64,000 nucleotides of DNA, from NCBI GenBank assembly GCA_043827405.1, contig JBDRPD010000053.1, positions 20,826 through 84,825 of the forward strand, written 5' to 3'. The stretch's first letter is position 1, and every line of letters begins with the position of its first letter. Below the pieces are notes generated by a model. That model was not told the DNA's origin. It was given only the letters and a program-made list of their open reading frames with translations, and searched no databases. The DNA comes from Elusimicrobiota bacterium. Lineage in GTDB: Bacteria > Elusimicrobiota > Elusimicrobia > UBA1565. Positions 1-55,595 of the stretch are shown in pieces. A program made the translations under genes and the position numbers.

Positions 1-216
1 ACGGCGACCGCGACGCTGCGGCCGGCGTCGTGGATCCGGCGGATGGACTTTTCCAGGGCCCGCATATCCGGCAGATTGAAGTAGACGCTGTTGGAGCGGT
101 CATTGATCGAATTCCCGGGATGCACCACGCCGCAGTAGAAGCTGTCGGCGCCGGCCTCGATAAGCGGCGCCAGCTCGTCCGGATGGCGGAACGGGACATG
201 GATGCGCATCCCCATC
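1..216 (-). CDS. Partial CDS (N-terminal part only; the gene continues off the window start), peptidase U32-like
   Basis: Reverse-strand translation from ATG at about 216 gives MGMRIHVPFRHPDELAPLIEAGADSFYCGVVHPGNSINDRSNSVYFNLPDMRALEKSIRRIHDAGRSVAVA with no stop before the window edge. The pattern L.AP...AGAD.(F/V)Y.G followed by a hydrophobic beta-strand resembles the N-terminus of U32 family proteins. It is not in the ORF track because it runs off the edge. Confidence 0.4.
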
Positions 217-31977: not shown

Positions 31978-34925
31978 AGGCCCTGCTTCTCGCCCTGCTC
32001 CTGCCGCCGGCCGCGGCCGCCCAGCCGCCCGTCGCGGTGCTCGAAGGGCATAACGATCACGTATTCCGGGTGCTGTTCTCGTCCGACTCCCGCCGCGTCA
32101 TCTCCGCCTCCGAAGACGGCACGGTCAAGGTTTGGGGAGCCGCGGATGGGAACGAAATCCTAACCTACCGCTCGACGGAAATCATCGCCGGCTTATTCGC
32201 GATCGACGGCATCAAGGTCGCCGTCAACCTAAACGATCACGGCGTCCGCATCCGCGACCTTTTTTCCGGGGAGGAGACCGCCGCCCTGCGCGGGCTGCCG
32301 GACGAACTGCGAACGCTCGCGATTTCTCAGGATGGGCGCCTGGCGGCCACCATTGTCTTCAACGGGCCGCTTCAGCTGTGGGCGGAAGGCCGTCCCGTTG
32401 TTCTGCGCCGGACCGAAGACGCGCACGCTTTTGCCATGGGACAGACCGTGCCGGGCCAGGAACCCTGCCTTGCCTTCTCCCTGGACGGCAGCGGGCTTTT
32501 GGCGGGACTCGGAGACGAGACCCTGCATTTTTTCAATACCGCCTCCGCGCAGCAGATCGCGAGCTGGCGCGGACACCGGAATCAGGTGATGGCCGCCGTC
32601 TTCTCCCCCGACGGACGCACCGCGCTCTCGGGAGGCAGCGACAATACCATCCGCCGCTGGGACGTCGCGACCGGCGAAACGCTGGCGGTGTGGCGGGGAC
32701 ATACCAGCCATATTTATTCGCTGGCCTTTTCTCCGGACGGCAAAAAGGCGCTGTCGGGCAGCGCCGATCATACCGTACGGCTGTGGGACGCCGCTTCCGG
32801 CAAGGAGCTCCGCGTCGGCTGGGGGCATCAGGGCATCGTCCGCCACGTCGCTTTCTCTCCTGACGGAAAGCTCGCGGCTTCCGCCGGCGAGGACCGCGCG
32901 GTCATGCTGTGGAGCATGGACGGCTCACGCCGCGCCGCGCCGGCGCAGTCCCCGACGGCGCCGGAGATCGGCAGCCGCGAAGACCTCGGACGGCACCTGT
33001 TCTTCGACCGCCGGCTCTCCGGGGACAGCACGCTCAACTGCGCCGACTGCCATGACCCGCGAAAGCACTACACGGACGGGCTCGCGCTCTCTACCGGATA
33101 CCAGGACACCCTGTATTTCCGCAACACCCCCTCGCTGCTTAATCTGGCGGGGCAGAAACATCTTTACTGGGACGGACGCTTCCCGTCCACCGACCTGCCT
33201 TCATTGATCCGCGACCATATCGCGGAGGCGCATTTCATGAACGCCGACGGCCGCCTCATCGTGGAGAAGCTCCGCCAGGCGCCCGGCTACGTCGACGTTT
33301 TTCGCAAAATATACGGCGACGAGCCGTCCTACAGCCGCATTCTCGACGCGCTGACGTCCTTTGTGCTCTCGCTCAAGTCCGCTGATCCCGGGGAGCTCTC
33401 CGCCGCCGCCCGGCGCGGTCAACAGCTGTTCGCGGGCAAAGGCGGCTGCTCCGCATGCCACAACGGACCGCTGCTGAGCGACGGGAAGATGCACGACCGC
33501 GGCGTACCGGATAACCCCGAGATTTTCCACGACCCCTTGCGCCGCATATCGCTGCGGCGCTTTTTCAAGCTCCTCGGCGTCAAAGACTATGCGAGCCTGC
33601 GGCGCGACCCGGGGCTCTACGCGATCAGCAAAAACCAGGCGGACGCCGGAAAATTCAGAACGCCCAGCCTGCGCGAAATCGGCCGCACCGCCCCGTATAT
33701 GCATAACGGCATGTTCGCGACGCTGGAGGAGGCGGTGCATTTCGAGAATCCCGAATTGGCGGAGCCGGAGCGGCGCGATATCGTCGCCTTCCTGGAATCG
33801 CTCGGCAGCGAACTTCCCGCCGCCTCCATGACGCCGCCGCGCCTGCCCCGCTACGCCGTACGGCCGGCCGGCCCGCACCCGGCCCCGCCGAGCACCGCCC
33901 CCCCGGCCGCGCGCCCTAAAGCGCCGCCGCTCGGTCCGCTGCCGCCGGTCCCGGTGCCGAAAGACAATCCGCTCACCGCGGAAAAAGTGGAGCTGGGGAA
34001 GCTGCTCTTCCACGACCCGCGGCTGTCGGGCGACGGCTATACCTTCTGCGCCACCTGCCATGCGCCCGCCATGGGCTGGGGCGACGGCAGCGATCTGGCG
34101 CAAGGCTATCCCGGCACGCTGCACTGGCGCAACTCGCAGACCCTGCTTAACGCCGCCTACTACTCGAAGCTTGAATGGGACGGCGCCTGGCCGAGCCTGG
34201 AAGAGCAGGCGCGCGGCGCGATCACCTCCAACATCAACGGCAACGCCGATCCGACCATGATCGAGGAGCGGCTGGCGGAGTCGCCGGAATACGTCGAGCT
34301 GTTCAAGAAAGCCTTCGGCGTGGAGCGGCCGAACTTCGAGAGCGTACTCAAGGCGCTCGCCTCCTTCCAGCGCGCGGTACCGATCTCGCGCCATGTCCCG
34401 TTCGACCAGGGAACCCTTTCGCCCGCCGCCCGGCGCGGCCGCCGGCTGTTTGAAAACAAGGCGGGCTGCATCGCCTGTCATAACGGGCCGCTGGCATCCG
34501 ATCAGGGCTTTCACGCCACCGGCGTGCCCCGCCATCCCGCCTTCGAACACATCGCCCTGCGCCAGATCACCCTGCGCTACCAGCACGTAACGCGGGGGGT
34601 GCCGGAAGAGGTTTATCGGGACGCCGACACCGATCAGGGGCTGTACCTGTCGACGCTGAGGAAAGAAGATATCGGCCGCTTCCGCACGCCGAGCCTGCGC
34701 GAGCTCAAATACACCGCGCCCTACATGCACAACGGCATATTCCAGACTCTCGCCGAGGTGGTGGACTTTTACAATGAGGGCGGAGGCGAGACGCCCAACA
34801 AGTCGCCCCAGCTCAAGCCCTTGGCGCTCACCGCGGCGGAGAAAGACGACCTGATCGCCTTTCTCGAAGCGTTATCCGGCGATGAGATTCTGCTCGCCCC
34901 GCCGCCGGCGGAAGACGGCCGCTAG
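31974..34925 (+). CDS. WD40 / tandem di-heme cytochrome c peroxidase fusion protein, paralog 8 (divergent N-terminal propeller)
   Basis: 983 aa. ATGA overlap. The first half of the propeller is degenerate (only 3-4 canonical WD repeats near the C-terminal side of the propeller region). CADCH, CSACH, CATCH, CIACH and 2x PYMHNG. Confidence 0.85.
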   Translation: MKALLLALLLPPAAAAQPPVAVLEGHNDHVFRVLFSSDSRRVISASEDGTVKVWGAADGNEILTYRSTEIIAGLFAIDGIKVAVNLNDHGVRIRDLFSGEETAALRGLPDELRTLAISQDGRLAATIVFNGPLQLWAEGRPVVLRRTEDAHAFAMGQTVPGQEPCLAFSLDGSGLLAGLGDETLHFFNTASAQQIASWRGHRNQVMAAVFSPDGRTALSGGSDNTIRRWDVATGETLAVWRGHTSHIYSLAFSPDGKKALSGSADHTVRLWDAASGKELRVGWGHQGIVRHVAFSPDGKLAASAGEDRAVMLWSMDGSRRAAPAQSPTAPEIGSREDLGRHLFFDRRLSGDSTLNCADCHDPRKHYTDGLALSTGYQDTLYFRNTPSLLNLAGQKHLYWDGRFPSTDLPSLIRDHIAEAHFMNADGRLIVEKLRQAPGYVDVFRKIYGDEPSYSRILDALTSFVLSLKSADPGELSAAARRGQQLFAGKGGCSACHNGPLLSDGKMHDRGVPDNPEIFHDPLRRISLRRFFKLLGVKDYASLRRDPGLYAISKNQADAGKFRTPSLREIGRTAPYMHNGMFATLEEAVHFENPELAEPERRDIVAFLESLGSELPAASMTPPRLPRYAVRPAGPHPAPPSTAPPAARPKAPPLGPLPPVPVPKDNPLTAEKVELGKLLFHDPRLSGDGYTFCATCHAPAMGWGDGSDLAQGYPGTLHWRNSQTLLNAAYYSKLEWDGAWPSLEEQARGAITSNINGNADPTMIEERLAESPEYVELFKKAFGVERPNFESVLKALASFQRAVPISRHVPFDQGTLSPAARRGRRLFENKAGCIACHNGPLASDQGFHATGVPRHPAFEHIALRQITLRYQHVTRGVPEEVYRDADTDQGLYLSTLRKEDIGRFRTPSLRELKYTAPYMHNGIFQTLAEVVDFYNEGGGETPNKSPQLKPLALTAAEKDDLIAFLEALSGDEILLAPPPAEDGR

Positions 34926-34933
34926 AAAGCGGC

Positions 34934-35365
34934 CTACTCTTTCTTCTTGAGCTTCATGCCGCACTTGGGGCATTTGCCCGGCGCATGCCCTTTATGGCAG
35001 CCCATCGGGCAGACGTAAACCTGGCCCGGCTTCTTGTCCTTTTTCTTGAGCAAGCAGCTCTTGCAGGTGCATCCTTCCTTGCAGCCGCTCTTGGCGTAGG
35101 CGGCCTGAATCTTCTCGACCACCGCCTTGTCCTTGGACGTGATGCGGATAATGATACCGTCGGCGGTATTTTCGAACTTGGTCTCAGCGCCCTTTATCGA
35201 CATAGGGCAGACATGAGCGTCCTTCTTGACGAGCTTCCCGTCTTTCGCGGCGGCATGCGCTTCTCCCACGCCGCAGGAACCGCAATGGGACCATGACGCT
35301 CCCGGGGCGCACAGCAGCGCCGCGGCCAAACCGGCGGCGATCCAAAGTCCTTGATATTTTTTCAT
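34934..35365 (-). CDS. Secreted small metal-binding protein with heavy-metal-binding-domain (YxCPM...GKCPxCGM) motifs
   Basis: 143 aa. Signal peptide MKKYQGLWIAAGLAAALLCAPGASWS. Motifs HVCPMSIKG and YVCPMGCHKGHAPGKCPKCGMKLKKKE match the HMBD (YTCPMHPE...CPxCGM) pattern of Cu/Ag/Zn resistance proteins. Also GCKEGCTCKSC. Convergent with paralog 8 with only an 8-bp gap. GC content is visibly lower than the flanks. Confidence 0.65.
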   Translation of the reverse strand: MKKYQGLWIAAGLAAALLCAPGASWSHCGSCGVGEAHAAAKDGKLVKKDAHVCPMSIKGAETKFENTADGIIIRITSKDKAVVEKIQAAYAKSGCKEGCTCKSCLLKKKDKKPGQVYVCPMGCHKGHAPGKCPKCGMKLKKKE

Positions 35366-35450
35366 GATGAGCCTCTTTGGTGAAGAATCAAATCCAGTAC
35401 AGAATAGACGAAGTCTTTCAACGCAAGCTTAACACGGTCTTAATTCCTTC

Positions 35451-36173
35451 TCAACAACACCCCTTGTCCGAGCATCCCTCATCCGTACACCCTTTATCCG
35501 AGCACCCCTCATCCGTACATCCGCACCCTTTATCCGCGCATCCATGCCCCGAGCCTGCGGGCGGACGAACGGCGATAAAAATCGGACAGAGCCCGTCCGC
35601 GGTCTTTTCGCCGGCATGGACTTCCTTCATCTTCACCGTCTCCGGCCGGTCGATGACCGCGCCGCGGCCCCGCCAGTCGATCTTCTGCAGCACCGCCTCC
35701 ACATGTTCGGACAAGCCGCGGATGACGAGCTTGAGGGTCGGCGAGGCGTGCTCGCTCTGGTAGCGCTCGAGCGCGATTCCCAGCCGCAGCATCCCGGCGA
35801 CGGCCCGGTCTTTCTCCGCGGCGCTCAAACCGTAATGCCCGAGCTGATTTTCCAGCGTCTGGAGAGCTTCCCCCTCGAGATCGAGCTTAAGCTCCTTGCT
35901 GCGCTCGCCCGCGGTTATTTTCACCGCGTCTTTGGGCGTCATGCCGGTCAAAGTAAAAACGTCGCCGAGGTCCTTGAAGGGAACTTCGCTGACGTCGAGA
36001 AAGACCAGGCGGCAGTTGCCGTTGATCGCGGTAAACAGATCGGTCGTATAGTTGAAACAGCCGATAACGGCATTGGCCAGAAAGCCGTCCACGTCTTTCT
36101 CCGGCTTCGCTTCCCAATCTTTTCCGATCAGCTCTTGCAAAACGGAAACCGGTATCTTCCCGACCACTGCCAT
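35451..36173 (-). CDS. Hypothetical protein with C-terminal Cys-rich tandem repeats (GC[AGST]DKGC / DEGCSDKGC), possible metal-binding protein
   Basis: Real start probably MAVVGKIPVSVLQEL (ATG at 36171-36173) within ORF 35451..36296. The C-terminus GSGHGCADKGCGCTDEGCSDKGCTDEGCSDKGCC is encoded by a ~27-30 bp tandem nucleotide repeat. Confidence 0.55.
   Translation of the reverse strand: MAVVGKIPVSVLQELIGKDWEAKPEKDVDGFLANAVIGCFNYTTDLFTAINGNCRLVFLDVSEVPFKDLGDVFTLTGMTPKDAVKITAGERSKELKLDLEGEALQTLENQLGHYGLSAAEKDRAVAGMLRLGIALERYQSEHASPTLKLVIRGLSEHVEAVLQKIDWRGRGAVIDRPETVKMKEVHAGEKTADGLCPIFIAVRPPAGSGHGCADKGCGCTDEGCSDKGCTDEGCSDKGCC
35455..35545. repeat. Tandem ~27-30 bp direct repeat (about 2.5-3 units) inside the coding sequence, encoding DEGCSDKGC-type repeats
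   Basis: ccctcatccgtacaccctttatccgagcac / ccctcatccgtacatccgcaccctttatccgcgcatcc read directly on the + strand. Confidence 0.6.
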
Positions 36174-36253
36174 AAGCCCCTCCCGGACGCAAGAGTTCCT
36201 CCTTCGCGTCGGCACACTCTTTGTATCATATCTTCCGGCCGCATTCCGAAGCC

Positions 36254-39200
36254 ATGCCCAGCATTCACGCCGCCATAACGGCCTTTCTGTTCGCACTGCT
36301 CGCGCCCCGCACCCTGGCGGCGGAGAGCGCGCTTATCGGCACGCTGGAGGGCCATACCGATCACGCCGTCAACGCCTATTTCACGCCGGACGGGAAACAG
36401 TTGCTGACCATCGGCGAAGACCATACGGTCCGCCGCTGGGACGCCGCCTCCGGCGCCGAGCTCGTCGTCCACAGATTCCACGATCCCGTTTCAGGCCTGT
36501 TCTATAAGGACGGCTACAAAGCCGCGGCCTTCCCGGAGCCCCACCGCCTGCAGATATGGAACCTCGCGACGGAAAAGCTGTTCGCCGACATCGAGGACTA
36601 CAACGGCAAGATCCGGACTTTTCTTCTCGCACCGGATGGGCGCACCGCCGCGCTGCTGTCCTGGCAGGGAGAGGTTTCGCTGTGGGACCTGGACAAGCTC
36701 GACAGAATTGCGGTCCTCAACAGCGACCAGAAAGAGCGCGCCTGGTCCATTTCCCTCTCCCCGGACGGCCGGCACCTGTTCGCCGGCGCCGGCGAGAAGG
36801 CGCATGTCATCATGCGGTGGGAGCTCGGCACCGGCAAGCTGCTGAGCTCCTGGACCGGACATACCAACAAAGTCCGCGACATCGCCTTCACTCCCGACGG
36901 CGCCAAGGCGCTCTCCGCCAGCGCGGACCATACGCTGCGGCTATGGGACATTTCCTCCGGCAAGACGCTGGCCGTCTGGAAGGGGCATACCAGCCAGATC
37001 TGGGCCGTCGACATCTCTCCCGACGGGAAGCGCGCGATATCGGCCGGCGCGGACTACGCCGTACGGCTATGGGAGGTGGAGACCGGACGTCAGCTGGCGG
37101 CCTGGTGGGGACATCAGGCCATCGTCCGCGACGTCACGTTCTCCCCCGACGGCACGCTGGCGGCCTCCGCGAGCGAGGACCATACGGTAAAACTCTGGAA
37201 CGTCGAGGGACACGCGCGCATCGCCGCCTACCCCATACCTGAGCCGCCGCCCCCGCTCCCCGCGGGGCCGGGCACGCCCGAAGAGCGGCTGGGGCGCATG
37301 CTGTTTTTTGATCAGCGGCTTTCCGGCGACACCCACCGGGACTGCGCCGTCTGCCACGCTCCCGAACTGGCCTTCGCGGACGGCCTGGAGCTGTCTTTGG
37401 GCGCGCAGAACGTGCTGTATTTCCGCAACACCCCTTCGCTCTACAACCTCGACGAGCTGAAGCTCCTTTATTGGGACGGCCGCTTTCCCGCCGACGACCT
37501 GCCATCGCTGATCCGCGATCACATTTCCGAGGCGCATTTCATGAACGCCGACGGCCGCCTTATCGTGGAAAAGCTGCGCCAGGCGCCCGGCTATATCCGC
37601 GCCTTCCAGGAGGTATACGGCGAGGAGCCTTCCTATACCAAGGTCCTCGCCGCGCTGACCGCCTTCGTCCGTTCCATCAAATCCGGCGCGTCGCCCTATG
37701 ACCGGTATTTGGCCGGCGACGGCGACGCCCTGTCTCCCGCCGCCCGTCGAGGCTACGAGCTGTTCCTGGGCGATGCCGGATGCGCCCCATGCCATAGCGG
37801 CCCCATGCTCACGGACGGCAAGCTGCACGACCGCGGAGTGCCGGAGAACGAAGAGATCTACGATTCGCCCATGCGCCTCATATCGCTGCGCCGCTTCTTC
37901 AAGCTCCTCGGCGTAGAGGACTACGCCAATCTCCACCGCGACGTGGGCTTCTACGCTATATCGAAAAAACAGGAGGACATGGGCCGGTTCAGGACGCCCA
38001 GCCTGCGTGAAGTCGCACGTACGGCGCCGTACATGCATAACGGCCTGCTGCCTTCGCTCGATGACGCCGTTGCCCACCAGAATCCGCGGCTGAGCCCGAG
38101 CGAGCGAAAAGACATCACGGCTTTCCTGGAATCTCTCACCAGCGCCACCACCGCCTATGTCTCCCCGCCGCTTCCGCGTTATGAACTGCGCCGTCGTGCC
38201 GCGGACAAGAGAACCGCGGCCGCCGCCGCTGCGGCAGAGGAACCGAAGTCCGCCTTTCCGCCCCTGGGCCCGCTGCCCCCGCCGCCGGTCCCTGCGGACA
38301 ACCCGCTGACCGAGGAAAAAATCGAGCTCGGCAAGTTCCTGTACTTCGACAAACGTCTCTCGGGCAACGGCTACACGTCCTGCGACACCTGCCACGAGCC
38401 GCCCAAAGGCTGGGCCGACGGCAGCGACCTGGCGCAAGGCTACCAGGGCACGCTGGACTGGCGCCATGCGCAGACCTTGCTCAACGCCGCCTATTACACG
38501 AAGCTGGAATGGGACGGCGGCCAGCCGACCCTCGAGCAGCAGGCCAACGGAGCGATCACCTCGAATATTTCGGCCAACGGCGATCCGGAGATGATCGAGG
38601 AGCGGCTCGCCGCCACCCCGGAGTACGTCGCCATGTTCAAAAAGGCCTTCGGCGCCAAGCGCCCGACCTACGAGAACGCGCTGAAGGCGATCGCATCTTT
38701 TGTCCGCGCCGTTCCGGTATCGCGCAACGTGCCGTTCGACAAGGGCGCTCTTTCCCCCGCCGCCCGGCGCGGCCGCAAGCTGTTCGAAGGCAAAGCCGGC
38801 TGCATCCAGTGCCACAACGGGCCGCTGGTCTCCGCTCAGGGATTTCACGCCACCGGCGTCCCCCGCAACCCCGGCCTGGACCACCTGCTGCTGCGGCAGA
38901 TCACCGTGCGCTTTATGCATTCCAGCCGCGGCGTGCCGGAGGACATCTACCGGAACGCGGACTCCGATCCGGGCCTATACCTCAACACCCTGCGCCAGGA
39001 GGATATCGGTAAATTTCGCGCCCCGAGCCTGCGCGAGCTAAAGTACACCGCGCCGTATATGCATAACGGCATATTCCCGACGCTGGAAGCGGTGGTGGAC
39101 TTTTACAATAAGGGCGGAGGCGAGACGCCCAACAAGACCCCGCTCCTTAAACCCCTGGAGCTCAACGCCGGCGAGAAACAGGACCTGATCGCCTTTCTGC

Positions 39201-39331
39201 TGTCTCTCAGCGGCGACGAAGTGCTGATCACGCCGCCGCTCATTCCGCGCTTCCACCCCGGTCATGGAGACGACGATGACGAGAAGGAGGACCCGCATGC
39301 GGGCCGGGACGATGACCATAATGCGCATTGA
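36254..39331 (+). CDS. WD40 / tandem di-heme cytochrome c peroxidase fusion protein, paralog 9 (divergent propeller, acidic His-rich C-terminal tail)
   Basis: Start at MPSIHAAITAFLFALLAPRTLAAE (signal peptide) within ORF 36221..39331. Fewer canonical WD repeats at the N-terminus. CAVCH, CAPCH, CDTCH, CIQCH and 2x PYMHNG. C-terminal tail HPGHGDDDDEKEDPHAGRDDDHNAH. Confidence 0.85.
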   Translation: MPSIHAAITAFLFALLAPRTLAAESALIGTLEGHTDHAVNAYFTPDGKQLLTIGEDHTVRRWDAASGAELVVHRFHDPVSGLFYKDGYKAAAFPEPHRLQIWNLATEKLFADIEDYNGKIRTFLLAPDGRTAALLSWQGEVSLWDLDKLDRIAVLNSDQKERAWSISLSPDGRHLFAGAGEKAHVIMRWELGTGKLLSSWTGHTNKVRDIAFTPDGAKALSASADHTLRLWDISSGKTLAVWKGHTSQIWAVDISPDGKRAISAGADYAVRLWEVETGRQLAAWWGHQAIVRDVTFSPDGTLAASASEDHTVKLWNVEGHARIAAYPIPEPPPPLPAGPGTPEERLGRMLFFDQRLSGDTHRDCAVCHAPELAFADGLELSLGAQNVLYFRNTPSLYNLDELKLLYWDGRFPADDLPSLIRDHISEAHFMNADGRLIVEKLRQAPGYIRAFQEVYGEEPSYTKVLAALTAFVRSIKSGASPYDRYLAGDGDALSPAARRGYELFLGDAGCAPCHSGPMLTDGKLHDRGVPENEEIYDSPMRLISLRRFFKLLGVEDYANLHRDVGFYAISKKQEDMGRFRTPSLREVARTAPYMHNGLLPSLDDAVAHQNPRLSPSERKDITAFLESLTSATTAYVSPPLPRYELRRRAADKRTAAAAAAAEEPKSAFPPLGPLPPPPVPADNPLTEEKIELGKFLYFDKRLSGNGYTSCDTCHEPPKGWADGSDLAQGYQGTLDWRHAQTLLNAAYYTKLEWDGGQPTLEQQANGAITSNISANGDPEMIEERLAATPEYVAMFKKAFGAKRPTYENALKAIASFVRAVPVSRNVPFDKGALSPAARRGRKLFEGKAGCIQCHNGPLVSAQGFHATGVPRNPGLDHLLLRQITVRFMHSSRGVPEDIYRNADSDPGLYLNTLRQEDIGKFRAPSLRELKYTAPYMHNGIFPTLEAVVDFYNKGGGETPNKTPLLKPLELNAGEKQDLIAFLLSLSGDEVLITPPLIPRFHPGHGDDDDEKEDPHAGRDDDHNAH

Positions 39332-42333: not shown

Positions 42334-42531
42334 ATGACCGAGAAAAAGCACAAGCCGCTGGGACACCGCCTCAAGGAGAACCTGGAGGTCCTGAAGGAAA
42401 TATACGCCCTGATCAAGCTGCATAAGCGCTGGGCGCTTCTGCCCGTCTTTCTCGTCCTGGCCGTGCTCAGCCTGTTTATCACTTTGGCGGGCGGCAGCTC
42501 CGTCCTCCCGGCGATCTACGCGCTGTTCTAA
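42334..42531 (+). CDS. DUF5989-like small membrane protein (65 aa)
   Basis: MTEKKHKPLGHRLKENLEVLKEIYALIKLHKRWALLPVFLVLAVLSLFITLAGGSSVLPAIYALF. A basic N-terminus, one TM helix and a C-terminal ...AP.IY.LF match the DUF5989 family pattern. Starts 4 nt after paralog 10, and its stop overlaps the ATG of the next gene (TAATG). Confidence 0.5.
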   Translation: MTEKKHKPLGHRLKENLEVLKEIYALIKLHKRWALLPVFLVLAVLSLFITLAGGSSVLPAIYALF

Positions 42532-43505
42532 TGGTCCGGCTCCTGCTTTTTGCCGCGGCCGCTTTCGCTTTCGCCGCCGAAACAGACAGCGCCCTAATAC
42601 GATCCTTCGCCGGCCACCGGGACCTCGTTAACAGCGTCGCCGTGTCGCATGATGGACGGAGGATGGCATCCGGCAGCGCCGACCTCACCATCCGGCTGTG
42701 GGACATCGCGACCGGCAAGCAGCTATCGCTGTGGAAAGGGCATACGGTCGAAGTGAACATGGTCGTTTTCTTCCCCGACGACAAGAAGCTGCTGTCCGCC
42801 GGCGCCGACAACAACATCTACCTGTGGGACGCCGCGACGGGAAAAAATCTCGCGATCTGGCACGGCCATACCGACGACGTCAATGCTATCGCCGTCTCAC
42901 CCGACGGCACCAAAGCGCTTTCCGGCGGCCACGACGGCTACGTGCGGCTATGGGACACGGCGACCGGGAAACTGCTCGCCTCCTGGCTGGTCGACAACTT
43001 CGTCTACGCCGTCGCCTTCTCTCCCGACGGCAGCAAAGCGCTTTCCGGACAATGGGACAAGACGCTCAAGCTGTGGGACGTCGCGACCGGGAAGCTCCTC
43101 GCCACCTGGAGGGGCCATACCGACAAGGTCTACGCCGTCGACTTTACTCCCGACGGGAAAACCGCGCTGTCGAGCAGCAAGGACAAGACCGCGCGGGTAT
43201 GGGATGTCGCCAGCGGCCGGACGCTGCATATCCTCCGGCAGCCGCGCGGCATCGACGCCGCGGCCTTCTCCCCCGACGGCAGCAGGATACTGACCGGCAA
43301 CCGGGACTGGACGCTGACGCTCTGGGACACGGCCAGCGGAAAAGAGCTGCGCGCGTTCCACGGCCACCAAGACTACATCTACAGCGTCGCCTTTCTTCCC
43401 GACGGCCGCCGCGCCGTTACCGCCAGCGTCGACCGGACCATCAAGCTGTGGGACCTCGATGCGGCGTTCGTGAAGACGGATAAAGAAACGAACGGCTATC
43501 GCTGA
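42531..43505 (+). CDS. Secreted stand-alone WD40-repeat beta-propeller protein (7 repeats, no heme domain)
   Basis: 324 aa. Signal peptide MVRLLLFAAAAFAFAAETD. Seven canonical WD40 repeats (GHRDLVNSVAVSHDG...IRLWD etc.). No CxxCH. Confidence 0.85.
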   Translation: MVRLLLFAAAAFAFAAETDSALIRSFAGHRDLVNSVAVSHDGRRMASGSADLTIRLWDIATGKQLSLWKGHTVEVNMVVFFPDDKKLLSAGADNNIYLWDAATGKNLAIWHGHTDDVNAIAVSPDGTKALSGGHDGYVRLWDTATGKLLASWLVDNFVYAVAFSPDGSKALSGQWDKTLKLWDVATGKLLATWRGHTDKVYAVDFTPDGKTALSSSKDKTARVWDVASGRTLHILRQPRGIDAAAFSPDGSRILTGNRDWTLTLWDTASGKELRAFHGHQDYIYSVAFLPDGRRAVTASVDRTIKLWDLDAAFVKTDKETNGYR

Positions 43506-44878
43506 GCGGCCAGCTCCGCGTAGACGTTATCCGCCAGCACCCGGTTCCCGGCCGGCGTCAGGTGGTCGTTGTCCTCGAGGTAGTCGCCGCGCCCCGCACG
43601 CTCGATCAAAGCGCCGAATACGGCGCGGTTGTCGATCAGCGGCAGCTTATGCTTCTCGGCGATCCGCTGGATGGCCGTATTGGCGCTCTGGTACGCCACC
43701 GGATAGTTCTGCAGCACCAGGCGCACGCCTTTCTCCCGGCATAGCCGCACCATCTCATCCCAGCTCTCCATACGCAGACGGTTCACGTAGCGCTCGACTT
43801 CCTCGCGGTCGGTGAGCAGCTTATGGAAGCTGCGGAAGTCCTTATTCTCTCCCAGCCCCGGATGCTCGCGCCGCGAGCGATCCAGCACCCGCAGGACGTC
43901 CGCCGCCGTGTACCGGCTCTGCACCTGATAGGTCTGGACGAACTGGAAGTTCGCGCCGTCGAAGGCGTCGGTCCAAAAGCCGGCGGGAAACGCCCCGGCG
44001 ATCTCCAGCAGCAGCGCGAAATAATCGTCGTAGCGCGACTGCCGGGTATAAACGCGGCCCGCATAGTCGGCCAGCAGCTCCATAAAGTCGCCGGCGCGGC
44101 GCAGGTCCAGCTCATAGCGCCGCGCCTCCGCTCCGAAGACGGGCCGCAGCCGCGCCGTCAGCTCCGGCGCCAGGGCGCGCTGAGGATCGCCGGCCATGAG
44201 CTTCCGGTGCTCGCGATAAACGCCCAGCAGCAATGCGAACTTTTCGTCCGAGTTTGGCTCCGTCTTCCCGCCCGCCCGCCGATGCCGCCACCGCAGCCGC
44301 AGGTGGCGGAAGACTTTGTAGATGCGCAGGCGGTAAAGCCAGCCGGCGGGCAGAACGTCGTGCCACCGCCCCCCTTCCTCACGCATTCGCTCCCGCATCA
44401 GGGGCAGATTGAAGATATCCGCGGCGCCCACGAGAACGACGACGGCATCCGGCGGCCGCTGCGCGCCCTCGGTTTCAAGGTAGCGCTTGAGCTTGGCGGC
44501 CGCGCCGAAGGTGCTCTCCTCGCACTTCCCCATATTATAGACCGCGGCCGGCATTCCGGCGTCGATGAACCGCCGGTACAGGAAATACGGAAAGCTGTGG
44601 TAGCTTTTGACGTTGGTGCCGTTGGTGAGCGAATCGCCGAAGGCGAGGATCAGCCGCGTCCGGCCGTTCGGCGGGCGGTAACGCTCGAACGTGTCGTCGG
44701 CGTCGTGCTCCCCCTCATCATAGGGCGGCAAAAACTCCCGCTGCCGCGAGGCGGTGAGAGCGAAACCGGTCGCCCGCAGACCCGCTTCCAGCAGCGCCAG
44801 GCAGATGAGCAGGCTGACCAGAAATACGGTCAGCTTGACGCCGGGCGAATGTTTGTATTTATTTAGGAATCTCTTCAC
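43496..44878 (-). CDS. Membrane-anchored SGNH/GDSL hydrolase family protein (paralog of the 54189-58348 cluster)
   Basis: 460 aa. N-terminal TM (VKLTVFLVSLLICLALLEAGL). GDSL block LILAFGDSLTNGTNV. C-terminal DNDHLTPAGNRVLADNVY (DxxH). Convergent 10-nt overlap with the WD40-only gene. Confidence 0.75.
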   Translation of the reverse strand: MKRFLNKYKHSPGVKLTVFLVSLLICLALLEAGLRATGFALTASRQREFLPPYDEGEHDADDTFERYRPPNGRTRLILAFGDSLTNGTNVKSYHSFPYFLYRRFIDAGMPAAVYNMGKCEESTFGAAAKLKRYLETEGAQRPPDAVVVLVGAADIFNLPLMRERMREEGGRWHDVLPAGWLYRLRIYKVFRHLRLRWRHRRAGGKTEPNSDEKFALLLGVYREHRKLMAGDPQRALAPELTARLRPVFGAEARRYELDLRRAGDFMELLADYAGRVYTRQSRYDDYFALLLEIAGAFPAGFWTDAFDGANFQFVQTYQVQSRYTAADVLRVLDRSRREHPGLGENKDFRSFHKLLTDREEVERYVNRLRMESWDEMVRLCREKGVRLVLQNYPVAYQSANTAIQRIAEKHKLPLIDNRAVFGALIERAGRGDYLEDNDHLTPAGNRVLADNVYAELAAQR

Positions 44879-45910: not shown

Positions 45911-48900
45911 ATGACAGCACCCCAACTCGTTCGCGTCGCATGCGCCATCGCCATCACCCTCGCACCCGCCGCCGCGTTCGCGAATCCGGGCGACGGCTCC
46001 TACGAGCTCACGGCGCAGATCAGCAAGACCGCTTTCAAAGTAACGGGAAAGAAGTGGTATGCGAAGACCCTCCAGTTTTCGGCCGACGGCGGCATCCTGA
46101 TCGCCTCCGGCGCCAACTCGGAAGACAACGTTTTCCGCTTTTGGGACGTCGCGTCGGGGAAGCTCGTGGCCGAGATTCCCGAGATGCAGAACGACAGCAA
46201 GCTGGCGGTCACGCCCGACGGCCAGTTCCTAGTGCTGCGCTCGCCGACGACGCTCGTGCTCGCCCGCGCGGCCACCGGCAAGATCATCCAACGGGTCGTC
46301 ATCGATCCCAAGGCGTGGTCCCTTTCCACCACCCGGCTCGCCCTAACCAAGGACGGCGGCACCGTCGCGACGCAGCACGGCGCGAAGGTCAGATCGTGGG
46401 ATGTCGCATCCGGCAAGGAACGCAAGCCGCTCGCCGCCGCCAGCGGCAAAAAGGACAGCGAGGTGACGGCGCTGGCCTTCACGCCGGACGGCGGCACTTT
46501 GATCGGCGGCATCAACGATGACGACCGGCTGCACTTCTGGGACATGCGGACGCGGAAACTGCGCCTGGCCGCGCCCGAGCCGTGCGCGCTCCACGTGACG
46601 CAGATGGCCGTCAGCGCCGACGGTGCGCGGCTGATCACCGTAAACCTCAAAGGCCTGCTCTGCGCATGGGATCCGCGGACGCTGGCCATGGAAGGAGTGC
46701 TGACGCGGGACGTCCGCGTCGAGAGACCGCTATTGATGTCCCCGGACGGAAACACCTTGCTCTATTTCGACGCCAACCATGCGTTCACGCTTTGGGATAT
46801 CGAAAAGGAGCGAAAGAAGGCTTCTTTTGCCACCTCGTACGGCACGAACTTCGCCGTGTCGTCCGACTGGAAAACCGCCGCCGTAATAGGCCCCATCGGC
46901 GACAAGAGCGTCCGCGTCTTCGATGTCGCCTCCGGAGCGCTGCGCGGAGTCTTCAGCTCGGAGCCCGAGACGATCGATTTCACACTCGACGGCAAGACCC
47001 TGATAACCGGCGGCTACACCTCGAACCTTTGGGAGGTATCCACGGGCCGCCGGCGCGAGTTCTCAAGCGGCAACTCCTACTACTCGCTGGCCATCGCTCC
47101 GGACGGCAAATCGTTCGCGGCCTGCGAGCTTTACGGGACCGCCCATTTCTACGGCATCACCGCCGCCCCGACCCCGCAGGTCCCCGCGCCGACAGCCCCC
47201 GCCCTTCTCAGCGCCGAGCACGCTTTCAGCGAGCCGTCCGGCGACGGCGTTCTCGCGGCGGGCGAAAGCGGCACTCTGCGCGTGACCCTCCGCAACACGG
47301 GACGGGGCGCCGCCCATGCCGTCCGTGTAATACCGCGCCTGGAACCCTTCGCCCCCGGGATTCAGCTCTCGCCGGAGATCGTGCTGCAGACTCTCCCGCC
47401 GGCGGCGACCGCCGCGCTCGACATCGTGGTCCGCGCCACGCCCGAACTCGCATCCGGCGAGGCGAAGATCGTCGTGTCCGTGACCGAAGGCAACGGCTTC
47501 GACGCCCCCCCGTTCGCGGCGGCCGTCAAGACGCGGGGCTTCGCTCCCCCCCGCCTGGGCATCGCCGGCGTCAGCCTCGCCGGCGGCGGCAGCGTCAAGA
47601 AGCTGGCCACCAACCGCGTCGCCGTCACCATCCGGAATTCCGGAGAAGGCCCGGCGCAGGGCGTTCGCGCCGCGCTGGCGGTCGCCGATCCCAACATCTT
47701 CCTCGAATCCAAAGAGCCGGTCGCGCTCGGGGACCTGGAGCCGGGCGGCTCCAAGGAGGCGGAGTTCGGCTTCTTTATCAACAACCGCTACAGCGGAGCC
47801 AAAGAGCTTCCGATCACGGTCGGCATCGAAGAGGCGGCGGGCAAGTACGGGGTGAAGCCCGTTTCCCTGCGCCTCGCCTTGGATGAGCCGGCGCCCGACT
47901 GGTCGCGCGCCGCCGCGGCATCCGGCGCAGAGTTCAAGCTCAAGCGCATGACTCTTCTGCGCGGCGACGATGAGCTGCGCTACCCGGTCAGCTCGCGCGA
48001 CGGCAAGTGGGCGGCGGCCGGCAGCGGCGGCGGCTCGATCCTCGTATGGGACACGGCGACCGGCGAGCGCCGGGCGGCGCTGAAGATCAAGCTCGGCAAG
48101 CATTCGGAGCTCAAGCCCCAGGCTTTCACGCCGGACGGGGACGGCCTGTACGCGATCGCGGACAACAACGTCTACCTCCTGGACCTGGTCAATGAGCGCA
48201 GCCGGCCGTTCTGGAGCGGAACCCGCACCCGCTACGAGACGCGGGAGACCGGCAGCGCCTTCCAGCCGATCGCGACATTTTCCTACAACTTACTTGAAGC
48301 CGCGGCGCTCTCGCCCGACGGGCGAATGCTGGCGCTGGGCGGCTGCTACGAGAAAGACGAGGAATCGATCCTGCTCGACGTCGAGACCAAGGCCGAACGC
48401 GTGCTGCCCAGCGGCAGCGGCTGCGTGCGGCACGCCGTTTTCTCCCCGAAAGGGCGCCACCTCGCGCTCGGCCGCGAAAGCGGCGGCATGGTCGAAGTAT
48501 GGGATCCCGCCGCCGCCAAGCGCGTCAGCTCCTGGACGACCGGCAAGGACGCCGCGCGCGCTTTGGCCTTTTCCCCCGACGGGCAAACCCTGGCGACCAG
48601 CTTCGGCGAAAAAGACATCGCGCTGTGGGACCCGGCTACGGGCGCCCGCAAGGGCGTGCTCAAAGGAGACGGCTATGCCATCGGTCATCTGGCCTATTCC
48701 CCGGACGGCAGCTGGCTCGTTTCCACCTCCTACAACAATATGACGATATGGGATGCGCCCGCCTCCGCGCCCAAGGAAAAGCTCTCCACCGGCTATTACC
48801 GCGCCTTCACCTTCCTGCCGGACGGCACCTTGGCCGCGGCCAACGCGAAATCGCTGATCCTATACAGCCTCTACGGCGGCAAAAAAGCGGCACCCAAGCC

Positions 48901-50473
48901 GAAGGCCCCGGCCCGCCTGGAATTGGACGTCTCCTTTCGCGAGCCGTCCGGCAACCGGGCCTTGGACGCCGGCGAGGAAGGCGAGCTCGTCGTGAAGATC
49001 GCCAACCGCGGCAAGGGGAGCGCCTACGCGGTAAGGCTTCTCGCCGCGCTCGAGAAGCCGGCTCCGGGGCTGCGGCTCCCCCAGCCCCTGCTGGCGGGCG
49101 AGATCGCTCCGGGCAAATCGGTGACGCAGACATTGACGCTGCGCGCGACCGCCGGCATCGGCGCGCAGACGGTCACGCTTAAGATCGAAGCGCGTGAAGG
49201 CAACGGGTTCGACGCCGCTCCCCAGGTCATCGAGTTCCAGTCCCGCGCGCTGGAGGCGCCGCGACTGGAGATCGCCGGCCTGTCGCTGGCGGGCCAAGGC
49301 GTGGTCAAGGTCAACATGGTCAATAAGCTGACGGTCAAGGTGCGCAACAGCGGCCGCGGCGCGGCGCGGGACGTCAAGGCCGAGCTTGCGCTCGGCAGCC
49401 CGGAGATATTCCCTTCCGGCGAGACCGCGTACGCGCTGGGCACGCTCGCGCCCGGACAGACGGCGAAGGCGGACTTCGAGTTCTTCGTCAACGCCCGCTT
49501 CAAGGGCAAGAAGCTGCCGCTCGCGCTGAGCCTCAGCGAGTCGTTCGGACGCTTCGGCGTGCGGGAACAGCCGCTGCACCTGGCATTGGACGAGGCGCCT
49601 TCAGCGGCGCTGATTCAAGTACAGGAGCGCGAGCGCGAGGGAGCGCCGGCCGCGCCGGCGACGGCGGACGTGGACGCGCCCCCGCATACGGAGACCGCGC
49701 GTGATCCGGCGGCCTACGCCGTCGTCGTCGGCGTCGAGAAGTACCGGGAGAGCGGCCTCCCCGCCGTGGACTACGCGGCGCGCGACGCCCAGGCCGTGCA
49801 CGCTTACTTGACGCAGTCCATGGGGTTCGACTCCCGCAATGTCATTTTGCTGCAGAACGAGAGCGCGGCGAAGACCGATCTGGAAAAGTACCTCGGCGCG
49901 TGGCTCAACAACCGCGTGACGAAGAAGAGCCGGGTATTCGTATATTTTGCCGGCCACGGCGCCCCCGACCCCGCCACCGGAGAGGGCTACCTCATCCCGT
50001 ACGACGGTGACCCATCTTATACGAAGGAGACCGCCTATCCGCTCAAGAAGCTCTACGCGTCGCTGGCGAGCCTGCCCGCCGAGGAGGTGACCGTGGTCCT
50101 CGACTCCTGCTTCTCGGGCCGCGGCAAGCGGTCGGTCATCGCCAAGGGCGCGCGGCCGCTGGTGCTGACCAAATCCGAGAAGACGGCCGGGGAAAACACC
50201 GTCGTACTCAGCGCCGCCGGCGCCGACCAGATCAGCACCTTTCAACAGGACGCCGAGCACGGCCTGCTGACGTATTATCTGCTGCGCGGCCTGCGCGGGG
50301 ACGCCGACGCGGACGGCAACGGCCGCATCACGACCGGCGAGCTCTTCGCCTACACGCAGCCGGCGGTGGAGCGGGAGGCGCGGCTGCAGAACGTATCCCA
50401 GACGCCGACGCTGGACCCCGCGCTCGACGCGCTCGGGCGCCGCGCGAACCATGTCTGGATACGCCTGAAGTGA
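45911..50473 (+). CDS. Giant secreted protein (1520 aa): 2x [beta-propeller (WD-like) + two CARDB/DUF11-like Ig domains] + C-terminal caspase-like (peptidase C14) domain
   Basis: Signal peptide MTAPQLVRVACAIAITLAPAAAFA. WD-like repeats (FWDVASGK, SWDVASGK, FWDMRTRK; later WDTATGE, VWDPAAAK, LWDPATGA, TIWDAPA). Four CARDB-like segments (GTLRVTLRNTGRGAAHAVRV; VAVTIRNSGEGPAQGVRA; ELVVKIANRGKGSAYAVRL; LTVKVRNSGRGAARDVKA). C-terminal caspase domain: YAVVVGVEKY...VFVYFAGHGA...VTVVLDSCFSG (His/Cys dyad). SD ggaggt 6 nt upstream. Confidence 0.8.
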   Translation: MTAPQLVRVACAIAITLAPAAAFANPGDGSYELTAQISKTAFKVTGKKWYAKTLQFSADGGILIASGANSEDNVFRFWDVASGKLVAEIPEMQNDSKLAVTPDGQFLVLRSPTTLVLARAATGKIIQRVVIDPKAWSLSTTRLALTKDGGTVATQHGAKVRSWDVASGKERKPLAAASGKKDSEVTALAFTPDGGTLIGGINDDDRLHFWDMRTRKLRLAAPEPCALHVTQMAVSADGARLITVNLKGLLCAWDPRTLAMEGVLTRDVRVERPLLMSPDGNTLLYFDANHAFTLWDIEKERKKASFATSYGTNFAVSSDWKTAAVIGPIGDKSVRVFDVASGALRGVFSSEPETIDFTLDGKTLITGGYTSNLWEVSTGRRREFSSGNSYYSLAIAPDGKSFAACELYGTAHFYGITAAPTPQVPAPTAPALLSAEHAFSEPSGDGVLAAGESGTLRVTLRNTGRGAAHAVRVIPRLEPFAPGIQLSPEIVLQTLPPAATAALDIVVRATPELASGEAKIVVSVTEGNGFDAPPFAAAVKTRGFAPPRLGIAGVSLAGGGSVKKLATNRVAVTIRNSGEGPAQGVRAALAVADPNIFLESKEPVALGDLEPGGSKEAEFGFFINNRYSGAKELPITVGIEEAAGKYGVKPVSLRLALDEPAPDWSRAAAASGAEFKLKRMTLLRGDDELRYPVSSRDGKWAAAGSGGGSILVWDTATGERRAALKIKLGKHSELKPQAFTPDGDGLYAIADNNVYLLDLVNERSRPFWSGTRTRYETRETGSAFQPIATFSYNLLEAAALSPDGRMLALGGCYEKDEESILLDVETKAERVLPSGSGCVRHAVFSPKGRHLALGRESGGMVEVWDPAAAKRVSSWTTGKDAARALAFSPDGQTLATSFGEKDIALWDPATGARKGVLKGDGYAIGHLAYSPDGSWLVSTSYNNMTIWDAPASAPKEKLSTGYYRAFTFLPDGTLAAANAKSLILYSLYGGKKAAPKPKAPARLELDVSFREPSGNRALDAGEEGELVVKIANRGKGSAYAVRLLAALEKPAPGLRLPQPLLAGEIAPGKSVTQTLTLRATAGIGAQTVTLKIEAREGNGFDAAPQVIEFQSRALEAPRLEIAGLSLAGQGVVKVNMVNKLTVKVRNSGRGAARDVKAELALGSPEIFPSGETAYALGTLAPGQTAKADFEFFVNARFKGKKLPLALSLSESFGRFGVREQPLHLALDEAPSAALIQVQEREREGAPAAPATADVDAPPHTETARDPAAYAVVVGVEKYRESGLPAVDYAARDAQAVHAYLTQSMGFDSRNVILLQNESAAKTDLEKYLGAWLNNRVTKKSRVFVYFAGHGAPDPATGEGYLIPYDGDPSYTKETAYPLKKLYASLASLPAEEVTVVLDSCFSGRGKRSVIAKGARPLVLTKSEKTAGENTVVLSAAGADQISTFQQDAEHGLLTYYLLRGLRGDADADGNGRITTGELFAYTQPAVEREARLQNVSQTPTLDPALDALGRRANHVWIRLK

Positions 50474-52766: not shown

Positions 52767-53449
52767 CCCGCCGCTGCCAGCCGCTGCAGCAGCGCGCGCT
52801 GCGCCGGGTGCCAGGCGCATGCGGGCCGGGCCGCGACGATCATACTCTCCGCCTCGGCGACATCCTTGGCCACGCCGCGCAGCAGCAGCACCGCCGCCGC
52901 CAGAGCCGCCGATCGCCCATGACCGTTAGCGCAGTGGATGAATACGCCCCCCTCAGCCGACGCCGCCTGGCGTGCGAGCTCCATGAACGCGCCTTCCTCC
53001 GGCACAAAGGCATCAAGAGTCGGCAGTGACTTATACCCGCGGCGCGGCGCGTATTTAAGCCGGGGGAACTCGCTGGTCATATCGATAATTAATGTCACCG
53101 CCTCCGGGAGCTCCCTTTCGTAAGCGCGCCGCCCTAAAAACAAACCGGGAACGATCTCGTCCAGCACGTTTTCTCGTGAGAAAAATATCTGCGCGTGCCA
53201 GGTCGCCCAATTGATGAGCAGAAAGGGCAGCATGAGGACAACGATCCACCAGCGCATGGTGCCGTCATCGCGCTTGCCGAATACCCGTCCTGCCAAACCG
53301 AAATAAGCGCTGCCGACGGCCAGGCAGTTGGCGGCGGGCCACAGCATCAGCTGCTTCCAGCCGCCGCCGTCAAGCGACCAATAGACAAGCAGGGCGCCGA
53401 TCGAGAGGAAGGCGGCGGCTATCAGTTGGTGGGGGCGCTTGCGGCGCAT
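52757..53449 (-). CDS. Membrane-anchored dual-specificity/tyrosine phosphatase-like protein (CX5R)
   Basis: 230 aa. Three N-terminal hydrophobic helices. The P-loop VFIHCANGHGRSAA matches HCxxGxxR(S/T) of DUSP/PTP-type phosphatases (also PTPMT1/lipid-phosphatase-like). Confidence 0.7.
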   Translation of the reverse strand: MRRKRPHQLIAAAFLSIGALLVYWSLDGGGWKQLMLWPAANCLAVGSAYFGLAGRVFGKRDDGTMRWWIVVLMLPFLLINWATWHAQIFFSRENVLDEIVPGLFLGRRAYERELPEAVTLIIDMTSEFPRLKYAPRRGYKSLPTLDAFVPEEGAFMELARQAASAEGGVFIHCANGHGRSAALAAAVLLLRGVAKDVAEAESMIVAARPACAWHPAQRALLQRLAAAGCK

Positions 53450-53460
53450 GCTTTACACCC

Positions 53461-54192
53461 TCAAGCGGTCTTTTTCGCCGTCTTTTTCAGCTCACGGTCC
53501 CAGTGCTTGTTGGCGTTGCGGATATAGACATCGTGCGCGATGAGCGGCTTCTCGAGCACGGCGCGGGTCGGCTCGGAGATCGCGCCGTTTTCGACGACTT
53601 CCCGTCCCGCCGCCCGCACGGCCTTCATGTAGCCGCGCAGCATGAACCGCAGCATCGCCGACTCCACCCTGAGGAGCTCGCCCTCCCCGCGGTAGATCTC
53701 GGCGATGACCTCCGAGTGCATATTGCGCGCGATCCGCCGGAACAGCAGCTTCAGCACCTGGAAATGACTCTGCTCGGGGAAGCCGCAGTTGGAGATGACG
53801 ACGATCTTCGGCACGCCGACGGCCTTGACGTGCCGGTACTCGCCCGCCGAATCCTTCGCAAAATGAGGATCAATGAGCGGCACCATCCGGTCCATGAAAT
53901 TCTTCATCAGGCCCGAGACGTTGTCGACGTAGAGCGGCGTCGCGAAGACTACGATGTCGCTGTGCGCGAACCGGGGCAGCAGCTCGGCCATATCGTCCGG
54001 CATCGCGCATTTGCCGGGAGTTCGCGTCCAACACTTGAAGCAGCCGCGGCAGTGCTTGATCTTCTTCTCCGCGAGCAGGACATTCTCGACTTCGGCGCCG
54101 GCCGCGGCGGCGCCGCCGAGGAACGCCTCCACGAGAATATGGGTATTCCCCTTGCTTGCGCGCGCGCTGCCGTTGAAGGCCGTGATTTTCAT
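53461..54192 (-). CDS. Flavodoxin-fold NADPH-dependent FMN reductase / iron-sulfur flavoprotein (Isf-like)
   Basis: 243 aa. MKITAFNGSAR...SDIVVFATPLY matches the NADPH-dependent FMN reductase family. A compact Cys cluster HCRGCFKCW is like the Isf [4Fe-4S] motif. Its start overlaps the first SGNH gene (ATGA at 54189). Confidence 0.7.
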   Translation of the reverse strand: MKITAFNGSARASKGNTHILVEAFLGGAAAAGAEVENVLLAEKKIKHCRGCFKCWTRTPGKCAMPDDMAELLPRFAHSDIVVFATPLYVDNVSGLMKNFMDRMVPLIDPHFAKDSAGEYRHVKAVGVPKIVVISNCGFPEQSHFQVLKLLFRRIARNMHSEVIAEIYRGEGELLRVESAMLRFMLRGYMKAVRAAGREVVENGAISEPTRAVLEKPLIAHDVYIRNANKHWDRELKKTAKKTA

Positions 54193-55586: not shown

Positions 55587-55595
55587 CGTTAAAGC

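Follow-up and report, generated by a model that had tools for sequence, protein, structure and literature searches.

Within a 64-kb stretch of DNA from an uncultured Elusimicrobiota bacterium (positions 20,826 to 84,825 of the 194,892-bp contig JBDRPD010000053.1; called the window here, with positions counted from its first letter), ten paralogous genes of about 1000 codons each lie on the plus strand and together span 11093-42329. Every paralog begins with a signal peptide and contains a WD40 propeller and a pair of CCP_MauG di-heme units. Between paralogs 8 and 9 are two minus-strand genes, here termed geneA and geneB, which are the sole non-paralog genes within the array. The question raised by this arrangement is whether the pair serves the di-heme enzymes around it, as a metal-delivering or metal-sensing accessory comparable to MbnP beside MbnH, or constitutes a unit of its own that came to lie there later. 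Both possibilities were mentioned in the initial annotation of the window, which also described the pair as the only interruption of the array. Both open reading frames (ORFs) are indeed present, the second encoding 240 amino acids plus a stop and not the 241 amino acids given there. An identical 3.2-kb segment is present in sequencing run SRR26275510.

The reading preferred here, to which a probability of about one half is assigned, is that geneA and geneB form an independent two-gene unit dealing with a soft metal of the Cu(I) type, located at an operon boundary of the array and probably a secondary arrival. GeneB and then geneA would be read from the minus strand as one independent unit between an operon of paralogs 1-8 and an operon of paralogs 9-10. 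The geneA product would be exported to the periplasm and bind metal there through the rubredoxin-knuckle site Met121/Cys135/Met137 of its heavy metal-binding domain (HMBD), possibly assisted by its seven further cysteines. GeneB would stay in the cytoplasm, where a metallothionein-like tail with eight cysteines, gained in this lineage alone via expansion of a 30-nt repeat, may sense or sequester metal of this class. On this view the two genes are specific to the lineage, were probably placed there secondarily and do not accompany the di-heme peroxidase family as conserved partners. The features on which this reading draws are collected in Table 1.

Table 1. Features of the segment between paralogs 8 and 9 (positions in the window).
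Feature	Position	Strand	Description
geneA	34934-35365	-	143 amino acids; ORF, Shine-Dalgarno sequence, Pfam HMBD and homologues P0003-P0006; MFH2203268.1, 'heavy metal-binding domain-containing protein'
geneA signal peptide	35288-35365	-	residues 1-26, MKKYQ + hydrophobic stretch + A-S-W-S / H; predicted from sequence pattern and homologue alignment
geneA central module	35102-35209	-	residues 53-88, CPMSIKGAETKFENTADGIIIRITSKDKAVVEKIQ; family-specific, duplicated in P0004/P0005, not an HMBD
geneA C-terminal HMBD	34940-35020	-	residues 116-142, YVCPMGCHKGHAPGKCPKCGMKL; Pfam PF19335, alignment to 8ovl_A and 3rfu_A
geneB	35451-36173	-	240 amino acids plus stop; ORF; MFH2203269.1
geneB core	35568-36173	-	residues 1-202; no signal peptide; unannotated acidic family of ~200 amino acids
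geneB C-terminal tail	35454-35567	-	residues 203-240, RPPAGSGHGCADKGCGCTDEGCSDKGCTDEGCSDKGCC; 38 amino acids, 8 Cys, predicted disordered
Spacer, geneB stop to geneA start	35366-35450		85 bp, 41% GC
Divergent intergenic region	36174-36253		80 bp; geneB start to probable paralog 9 start (ATG 36254, signal peptide MPSIHAAITAFLFALLAPRTLAA)
Terminator-like hairpin	34917-34934	+	7-bp GC-rich stem over the paralog 8 and geneA stops, then a T-rich run

GeneA and its C-terminal domain

Both genes have strong Shine-Dalgarno sequences, AAAGAGG for geneA and GGGAGGGG for geneB, each 6 nt upstream of the ATG. A 281-amino acid version of geneB beginning at a GTG at 36296 is disfavoured, because the ATG at 36173 has GGGAGGGG in front of it and the N-termini of the homologues align to it. 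The product of geneA, which had been annotated as secreted, does begin with a signal-peptide pattern, which is conserved across its homologues and argues for export to the periplasm; in three of five family members the cleavage site falls directly before a (H/N)CGxC motif. The mature protein contains 11 Cys and 24 Lys and has a pI of 9.4.

Its C-terminus is an HMBD that covers the entire Pfam profile (positions 1-28 of 28) with an E-value of 5e-9 and a score of 36.4 bits against a cut-off of 23.6, and this domain is matched by all five of the family members. In the alignment to CopA of Legionella pneumophila (LpCopA), C119-P-M121...C132-P-K-C135-G-M137 of geneA corresponds to C42-P-M44...C56-P-L-C59-G-M61. 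The N-terminal domain of LpCopA is a rubredoxin-knuckle fold that, according to NMR, binds Ag+/Cu+ via M44, C59 and M61 (PMC11970713), and by alignment M121, C135 and M137 match these ligands. The likeness to the N-terminal domains of LpCopA (8OVL) and SilB thus comprises the full HMBD profile, the CPM...CPxCGM pattern and the Met/Cys/Met trio. However, the LpCopA domain lies in the cytosol as a fusion to a P-type ATPase, where its role is that of an autoinhibition sensor, whereas in geneA it ends a small, Lys-rich and apparently exported protein that contains, besides the HMBD, extra Cys clusters and an uncharacterised central module. There is no transporter near geneA, and the HMBD-like pattern occurs once in the window.

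The initial annotation had assigned two HMBD motifs to this protein. Only the C-terminal one survives comparison with Pfam; the other, HVCPM (residues 51-55), lies outside the single Pfam stretch and is not followed by CxxCGM. It opens a module, CP..GAExKxENTADG..I.IT.K....KIQ, that is common to the homologues and in which CPM is semi-conserved (CPT and GPG also occur). A TusA-like identity for this central module was considered and set aside, as the matches are sub-threshold (E=0.049, best 0.0014) and are found in two of the five members.

Relatives of geneA are few. A word-indexed search of 5.8 billion cluster representatives returned five at E<=0.001, four of which (P0003-P0006) share an architecture of signal peptide, one or two central modules, Lys-rich linker and C-terminal HMBD, with a Cys cluster in the linker of some only; the fifth (P0007) consists merely of three tandem HMBDs. 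The nearest homologue, P0003 (48% identity), is encoded beside an unrelated 187-amino acid secreted protein, an alcohol dehydrogenase and a fumarase, at a locus with neither a MauG-like gene nor a relative of geneB. At E<=0.1, no NCBIfam family matches geneA, its homologues or geneB.

GeneB, its family and its tail

GeneB and its relatives have no match in Pfam, NCBIfam, PADLOC or PHROGs, and the family profile yields only chance matches among PDB sequences. A word-indexed search found geneB itself and nothing else. An exhaustive HMMER search of 1.84 billion representatives gave 11 matches, seven of them convincing and full-length at 25-33% identity, and a subsequent profile search brought the family to 25 members; the weak matches P0013 (a repeat protein), P0015 (a simple-repeat ORF) and P0017 were excluded. 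Most members are about 200 amino acids long, one has an extra N-terminal TPR region, and three shorter ones are probably fragments. Family members lack a signal peptide, and their genes have unremarkable chromosomal surroundings, with neither metal genes nor peroxidases nearby. The geneA homologue and the geneB homologues occur in unrelated contexts, never together. In three proteobacterial loci, a 184-amino acid secreted protein without a Pfam family (L004 4361-4915, L005 5260-5814 and L168 4379-4933; 59-76% mutual identity) precedes the geneB-family gene. It was considered as a possible partner of geneB, but it has no counterpart in the window.

Beyond the C-terminal P.FF.F motif of the family, geneB alone among some 30 members extends into a tail, of which the last 29 residues (212-240) hold eight Cys and no aromatics. 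The GC(A/G/S)DKGC-type repeats noticed in the initial annotation are real and are encoded by a 15/30-nt tandem repeat, with the 30-nt unit present at 35457-35519 in 2.1 copies at a 90% match. A degenerate DNA pattern of the G-C-x-D-x-G-C unit matches five times against 0.04 expected, and the Cys cluster occurs once in the window. Both full 30-nt copies translate to the same decapeptide, GCTDEGCSDK; the four positions at which they differ are all synonymous third positions. Gly-Cys is held in register in every repeat unit. That the four differences are all synonymous suggests a tail that is probably translated and subject to purifying selection, and not a recent neutral read-through.

It could still be argued that the tail is a neutral, functionless by-product of repeat expansion past an ancestral stop, and that geneB has nothing to do with metal. 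Such an origin would suit a predicted disordered segment derived from a short tandem repeat and found in one sequence of about 30. Nevertheless, four synonymous differences out of four would arise with a chance of roughly 0.004 by our estimate, on the assumption that about one random change in four is synonymous, and this, together with the preserved Gly-Cys register, makes a neutral tail quite unlikely.

Bacterial metallothioneins and Cys- or His-rich metal-storage tails are represented by SmtA, Hpn and the tails of SlyD and HypB. Like these, the geneB tail is short, predicted to be disordered and free of aromatic residues; Cys makes up about 28% of it, arranged in regular repeats, and it is attached to a folded domain. 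In composition it resembles metallothionein-like or CopY-hook-like Cys segments. However, it has no match in Pfam or NCBIfam, and no described metallothionein family matches it; its metal binding is a prediction. The Cx4C pentapeptide register of the tail (G-C-[ST]-D-[KE]) is, to our knowledge, not a described metallothionein motif. Taken together, the sequences make the products of geneA and geneB plausible binders of thiophilic metals.

For the core of geneB, a single-sequence AF2 model (pLDDT 34) was discarded in favour of one based on an alignment of 25 sequences, in which the core reaches a pLDDT of 80 and a pTM of 0.72 and the chain is disordered from residue 208. The model places two strand-helix-helix units in tandem, at residues 2-51 (strand 2-8, helices 9-16 and 25-51) and 92-141 (strand 92-98, helices 102-114 and 118-141); as predicted, these resemble ribbon-helix-helix (RHH) proteins and can be superposed on known RHH structures. 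A beta-subdomain is formed by residues 55-71 and 147-201. The family-invariant residues K148, R152, G153, G171 and D175 fall in this subdomain, and R130 falls in helix 118-141.

It may be, then, that geneB is a metal-responsive, single-chain RHH transcription factor that uses its Cys tail as a switch and controls geneA, the paralog 9-10 operon or both. Known regulators provide the logic for such a model: CopY-type repressors join a winged-helix DNA-binding domain to a C-terminal CxCx4CxC hook, and NikR joins an RHH domain to a metal-sensor domain. The top Foldseek matches of geneB, both in the PDB and among the viral models of BFVD, are tandem RHH proteins; an (I/L)-P signature marks both predicted strand-helix junctions in most family members; the gene lies at a divergent promoter region, upstream of geneA; and a CxCx4C segment of its tail resembles the CopY hook. 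However, the Foldseek E-values are non-significant, RHH families are absent from the Pfam matches at E<=1 of the 25 family members, and profile comparison links geneB neither to an RHH family nor to a PDB chain. The family is also acidic, with pI values of 4.1-4.7 (5.1 for geneB itself) and a net charge of -3 on each RHH-like half of geneB, and the outward residues of the second strand are E/K/D and not the usual basic or polar set of an RHH ribbon. The invariant residues lie mainly in the beta-subdomain, outside the RHH part, and neither intergenic region contains a convincing operator repeat. A role as a DNA-binding regulator is therefore doubtful.

CopY has a winged helix where geneB has an RHH-like core, and the eight Cys of the geneB tail are mostly Cx4C-spaced; DNA binding by so acidic a protein would be questionable. 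With the tandem RHH proteins TraY (F plasmid), VirC2 and AvtR, geneB has no detectable sequence similarity. It is acidic, its two units are separated, and they are followed by a conserved beta-subdomain that TraY, VirC2 and AvtR lack. The geneB family occurs in contexts without plasmid transfer.

The array enzymes and their relatives

If the pair were an accessory of the di-heme enzymes, related loci might be expected to carry it. Relatives of the array were sought with paralog 8 in one genome per GTDB species (185,579) and with a profile of the ten paralogs in JGI metagenomes, and the best 80 loci of each scan (160 in total, 2.2 Mb) were examined with 10 kb of context. All 160 match paralog residues ~260-980 only, which correspond to the two peroxidase units. 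In none is an N-terminal WD40 domain fused to the peroxidase pair, and none carries a homologue of geneA or geneB within 10 kb. A tenfold WD40-fused array thus appears unique to this lineage among these best 160 loci, although, because only the best loci of each scan were listed, rarer WD40-fused relatives may have been missed. The comparison with orthologous loci suggested in the initial annotation accordingly spoke against a conserved pair and did not supply an empty site, as no WD40-fused array from another genome was among the loci listed to serve as a partner.

The genes that do accompany the relatives are of a different kind. Of these loci, 78 encode an AioA-like molybdoenzyme and 67 encode a Rieske subunit of the AioB-like type, and it is these idrAB-type subunits, and no small metal-binding proteins, that are the conserved partners. 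The idrABP1P2 layout is that of iodate-reductase clusters, in which detoxification of H2O2 or of an unknown oxidant is the role ascribed to the IdrP1 and IdrP2 peroxidases (PMC8692401, PMC10149662). Since the neighbours of the relatives match this layout, the array enzymes look like fused IdrP1-IdrP2-type peroxidase pairs rather than MbnH. The window itself has neither idrA nor idrB. The C-terminal ~650 amino acids of each paralog, comprising the two CCP_MauG units, are 40-60% identical to adjacent di-heme peroxidase genes of relatives.

A dedicated accessory would have geneA deliver or buffer metal for the WD40/di-heme enzymes, especially paralog 9, with geneB sensing the metal, in a manner reminiscent of MbnP and MbnH. 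Several features are compatible with this idea. The pair is embedded in the array and diverges from paralog 9 across 80 bp; geneA is a small, predicted periplasmic, candidate metal-binding protein beside periplasmic MauG/MbnH-like enzymes; and the best NCBIfam model for paralog 8 is the MbnH family, just under its cut-off (359 vs 362.85 bits). Paralog 9, moreover, is alone among the paralogs in ending in a His/Asp-rich segment (HPGHGDDDDEKEDPHAGRDDDHNAH, 39240-39331), a possible metal-binding extension next to geneA and geneB. In another frame, the DNA of this segment forms a spurious N-terminal extension of the paralog 10 ORF.

However, geneA shows no sequence relation to MbnP, having no NCBIfam match and thus none to an MbnP-type model, and it lies on the opposite strand in a separate transcription unit. 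MauG/MbnH-type enzymes modify Trp, and mature geneA (residues 27-143) has none, W8 and W25 being confined to the signal peptide. The absence of both genes from the related loci, the idrAB-type partners found there in their place, the alcohol dehydrogenase and fumarase next to the nearest geneA homologue, and the lack of a signal peptide on geneB where the array enzymes have one all argue in the same direction. The only HMBDs near the relatives listed, those close to MauG-like genes in two Nitrospirota loci, are part of a CopA ATPase encoded some 3 kb off, and for that reason they are treated as coincidence. The MbnP/MbnH analogy proposed in the initial annotation fails on every feature that could be tested and is unsupported. 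An accessory role in the broader sense is unlikely too, but it retains some weight because only this one array is known and because of the unusual tail of paralog 9.

Alternatively, the cysteines might serve redox chemistry, with geneA acting in the periplasm as a thiol scavenger, either sacrificed or recycled, of the oxidants handled by the array. A small, apparently exported protein with 11 Cys would suit such a task beside enzymes of a type thought to remove H2O2 or an unknown oxidant, and a methionine-rich peptide in perchlorate reducers, to which the iodate-reduction paper refers, offers a comparison. Even so, the C-terminal domain of geneA is a defined metal-binding fold with its three ligands intact, its homologue lies in an unrelated context, the idr clusters among the best loci have no such gene, and geneB is cytoplasmic. 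Scavenging is consequently very improbable.

Transcription units, composition and placement of the pair

Successive genes among paralogs 1-8 overlap by 4 bp or are separated by a 7-bp gap, and paralogs 9 and 10 overlap. As had been noted, paralog 8 and geneA converge, with 8 bp between their stops (34926-34933). The hairpin over these stops has a predicted energy of -22.3 kcal/mol in its 56-nt context (z=-2.3) and is plausible as the terminator of a paralog 1-8 operon. The T-rich run that follows it (34917-34948 with the hairpin) is the antisense of C-terminal KKKE codons of geneA, so the coding sequence of geneA doubles as the tail of the terminator-like site of paralog 8. If the first operon ends here, paralog 9 needs a promoter in the 80-bp region that it shares with geneB, and that region must hold promoters for both units, although it contains no consensus sigma-70 site. 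The spacer between geneB and geneA, AT-rich as the initial annotation had it, lacks a terminator-like site, a consensus promoter, an Rfam match and a stable RNA fold. The two genes would be co-transcribed. No Rfam family matches anywhere in 34600-36600. A 7-mer common to both upstream regions, CTCTTTG, is at chance level by estimate and overlaps the Shine-Dalgarno sequence of geneA.

Pairwise identities among the paralogs range from 48.5 to 64%; paralog 8 is nearest to paralogs 7 and 10, at 64%, with paralog 9 as their sister. The interruption therefore falls inside one sub-clade, which is compatible with, and no proof of, an arrival of the pair after the duplications.

Base composition gives a similarly qualified answer. 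The initial annotation had contrasted an insert of 55-58% GC with flanks of about 70%, and the dip is genuine, but the contrast is smaller than stated: the segment has 58.4% GC overall (geneA 58.1%, geneB 60.2%, with a 66% stretch within geneB), against 66.4% in paralog 8 and 64.9% in paralog 9; the remaining eight paralogs have 67.6-69.7%. The trough grades into the flanking paralogs on both sides, and part of it is due to amino-acid composition, as in the 26 Lys of geneA. For a comparison independent of amino acids, codons were simulated from the amino acids of each of 35 genes under window-wide synonymous usage. The GC content at third codon positions (GC3) of geneA is 0.761 observed against 0.826 expected (z=-2.2; codon log-likelihood z=-2.1), and that of geneB is 0.745 against 0.829 (z=-3.4; codon log-likelihood z=-4.1). 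Codon usage is thus atypical against the window as a whole, but mildly and not uniquely. Because five other genes are equally or more deviant and paralogs 8-10 are themselves slightly negative in GC3, geneA and geneB are mild outliers and not clear foreigners.

Among those five genes, 5028-6221 encodes an AAA_14/DUF4143 ATPase (GC3 z=-8.8) and adjoins HTH and DUF6036 nucleotidyltransferase genes, and 50493-53449 comprises a DSP-phosphatase-like gene (z=-4.1) and an ORF of 775 amino acids for which Pfam has no match (z=-6.1); these segments hold the most marked outliers in codon usage of the window and are more atypical than geneA and geneB. Elsewhere in the window, five paralogous GDSL-lipase-like genes, one with TPR repeats and three in tandem, lie on both sides of the array (9837-11033, 43496-44878 and 54189-58348). 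A stand-alone 7-blade WD40 protein is encoded directly 3' of the array (42531-43505), followed at 45911-50473 by a protein of 1520 amino acids with WD40 propellers, CARDB domains and a caspase (Peptidase_C14) domain. A multiheme cytochrome c of the c554/c7-like type and a B12-binding radical SAM gene occupy the left edge of the window (215-2844).

Traces of mobility around the pair were also sought. No mobility genes are present at the segment, whose neighbours on both sides are array paralogs; tblastn with the geneA and geneB proteins found no match in 72,556 plasmids, and no phage-family (PHROGs) or defence-family (PADLOC) match was obtained. The later insertion proposed in the initial annotation is plausible from composition; the deviation, however, is mild, no insertion scars are visible, and no empty orthologous site was recovered among the loci listed.

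Several points weigh against an independent soft-metal unit. Secondary arrival has to contend with the five genes of the 35 in the window that deviate as much or more in GC3 (3182-3958, 5028-6221, 50493-52820, 52757-53449 and 215-1618) and with the absence of target-site duplications and terminal inverted repeats at the borders of the segment, where the repeats are short and at chance level. As for metal, its binding by both products is predicted from sequence, neither the core of geneB nor the central module of geneA matches a family of known function, and the Cys of both proteins could serve redox chemistry instead. Because geneB-family proteins are acidic and elsewhere show no connection with metal, the tail is the sole ground for a metal role of geneB. 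Finally, with no second WD40-fused array at hand, a local functional link would be invisible to conservation tests, and both the 80-bp adjacency to paralog 9 and the His/Asp-rich tail of that paralog could reflect one.

At its most speculative, the evidence might be read as describing a new kind of protein, in which geneB, with its RHH-like scaffold, beta-subdomain and eight-Cys tail, would be an undescribed cytoplasmic metal sensor or chaperone that, with geneA, ties the expression of the adjacent WD40/di-heme peroxidase genes, or their maturation, to soft-metal status. This is a long shot, and unless geneB proves to be such a new type of sensor, thinking on metal homeostasis is unchanged. 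For the array, the interruption marks an operon boundary, with paralogs 1-8 ending at the hairpin and paralogs 9-10 requiring a promoter of their own, and since the MbnP-like idea is unsupported, it offers no basis for assigning a function to the array enzymes. For the protein families concerned, geneA adds a small, apparently exported architecture to the HMBD family, and the predicted tandem RHH-like core of geneB is a first structural hypothesis for a family annotated in no database. The tail of geneB, in turn, would be a clean example of a Cys-rich tail that arose from tandem repeat expansion and was then probably kept by selection.

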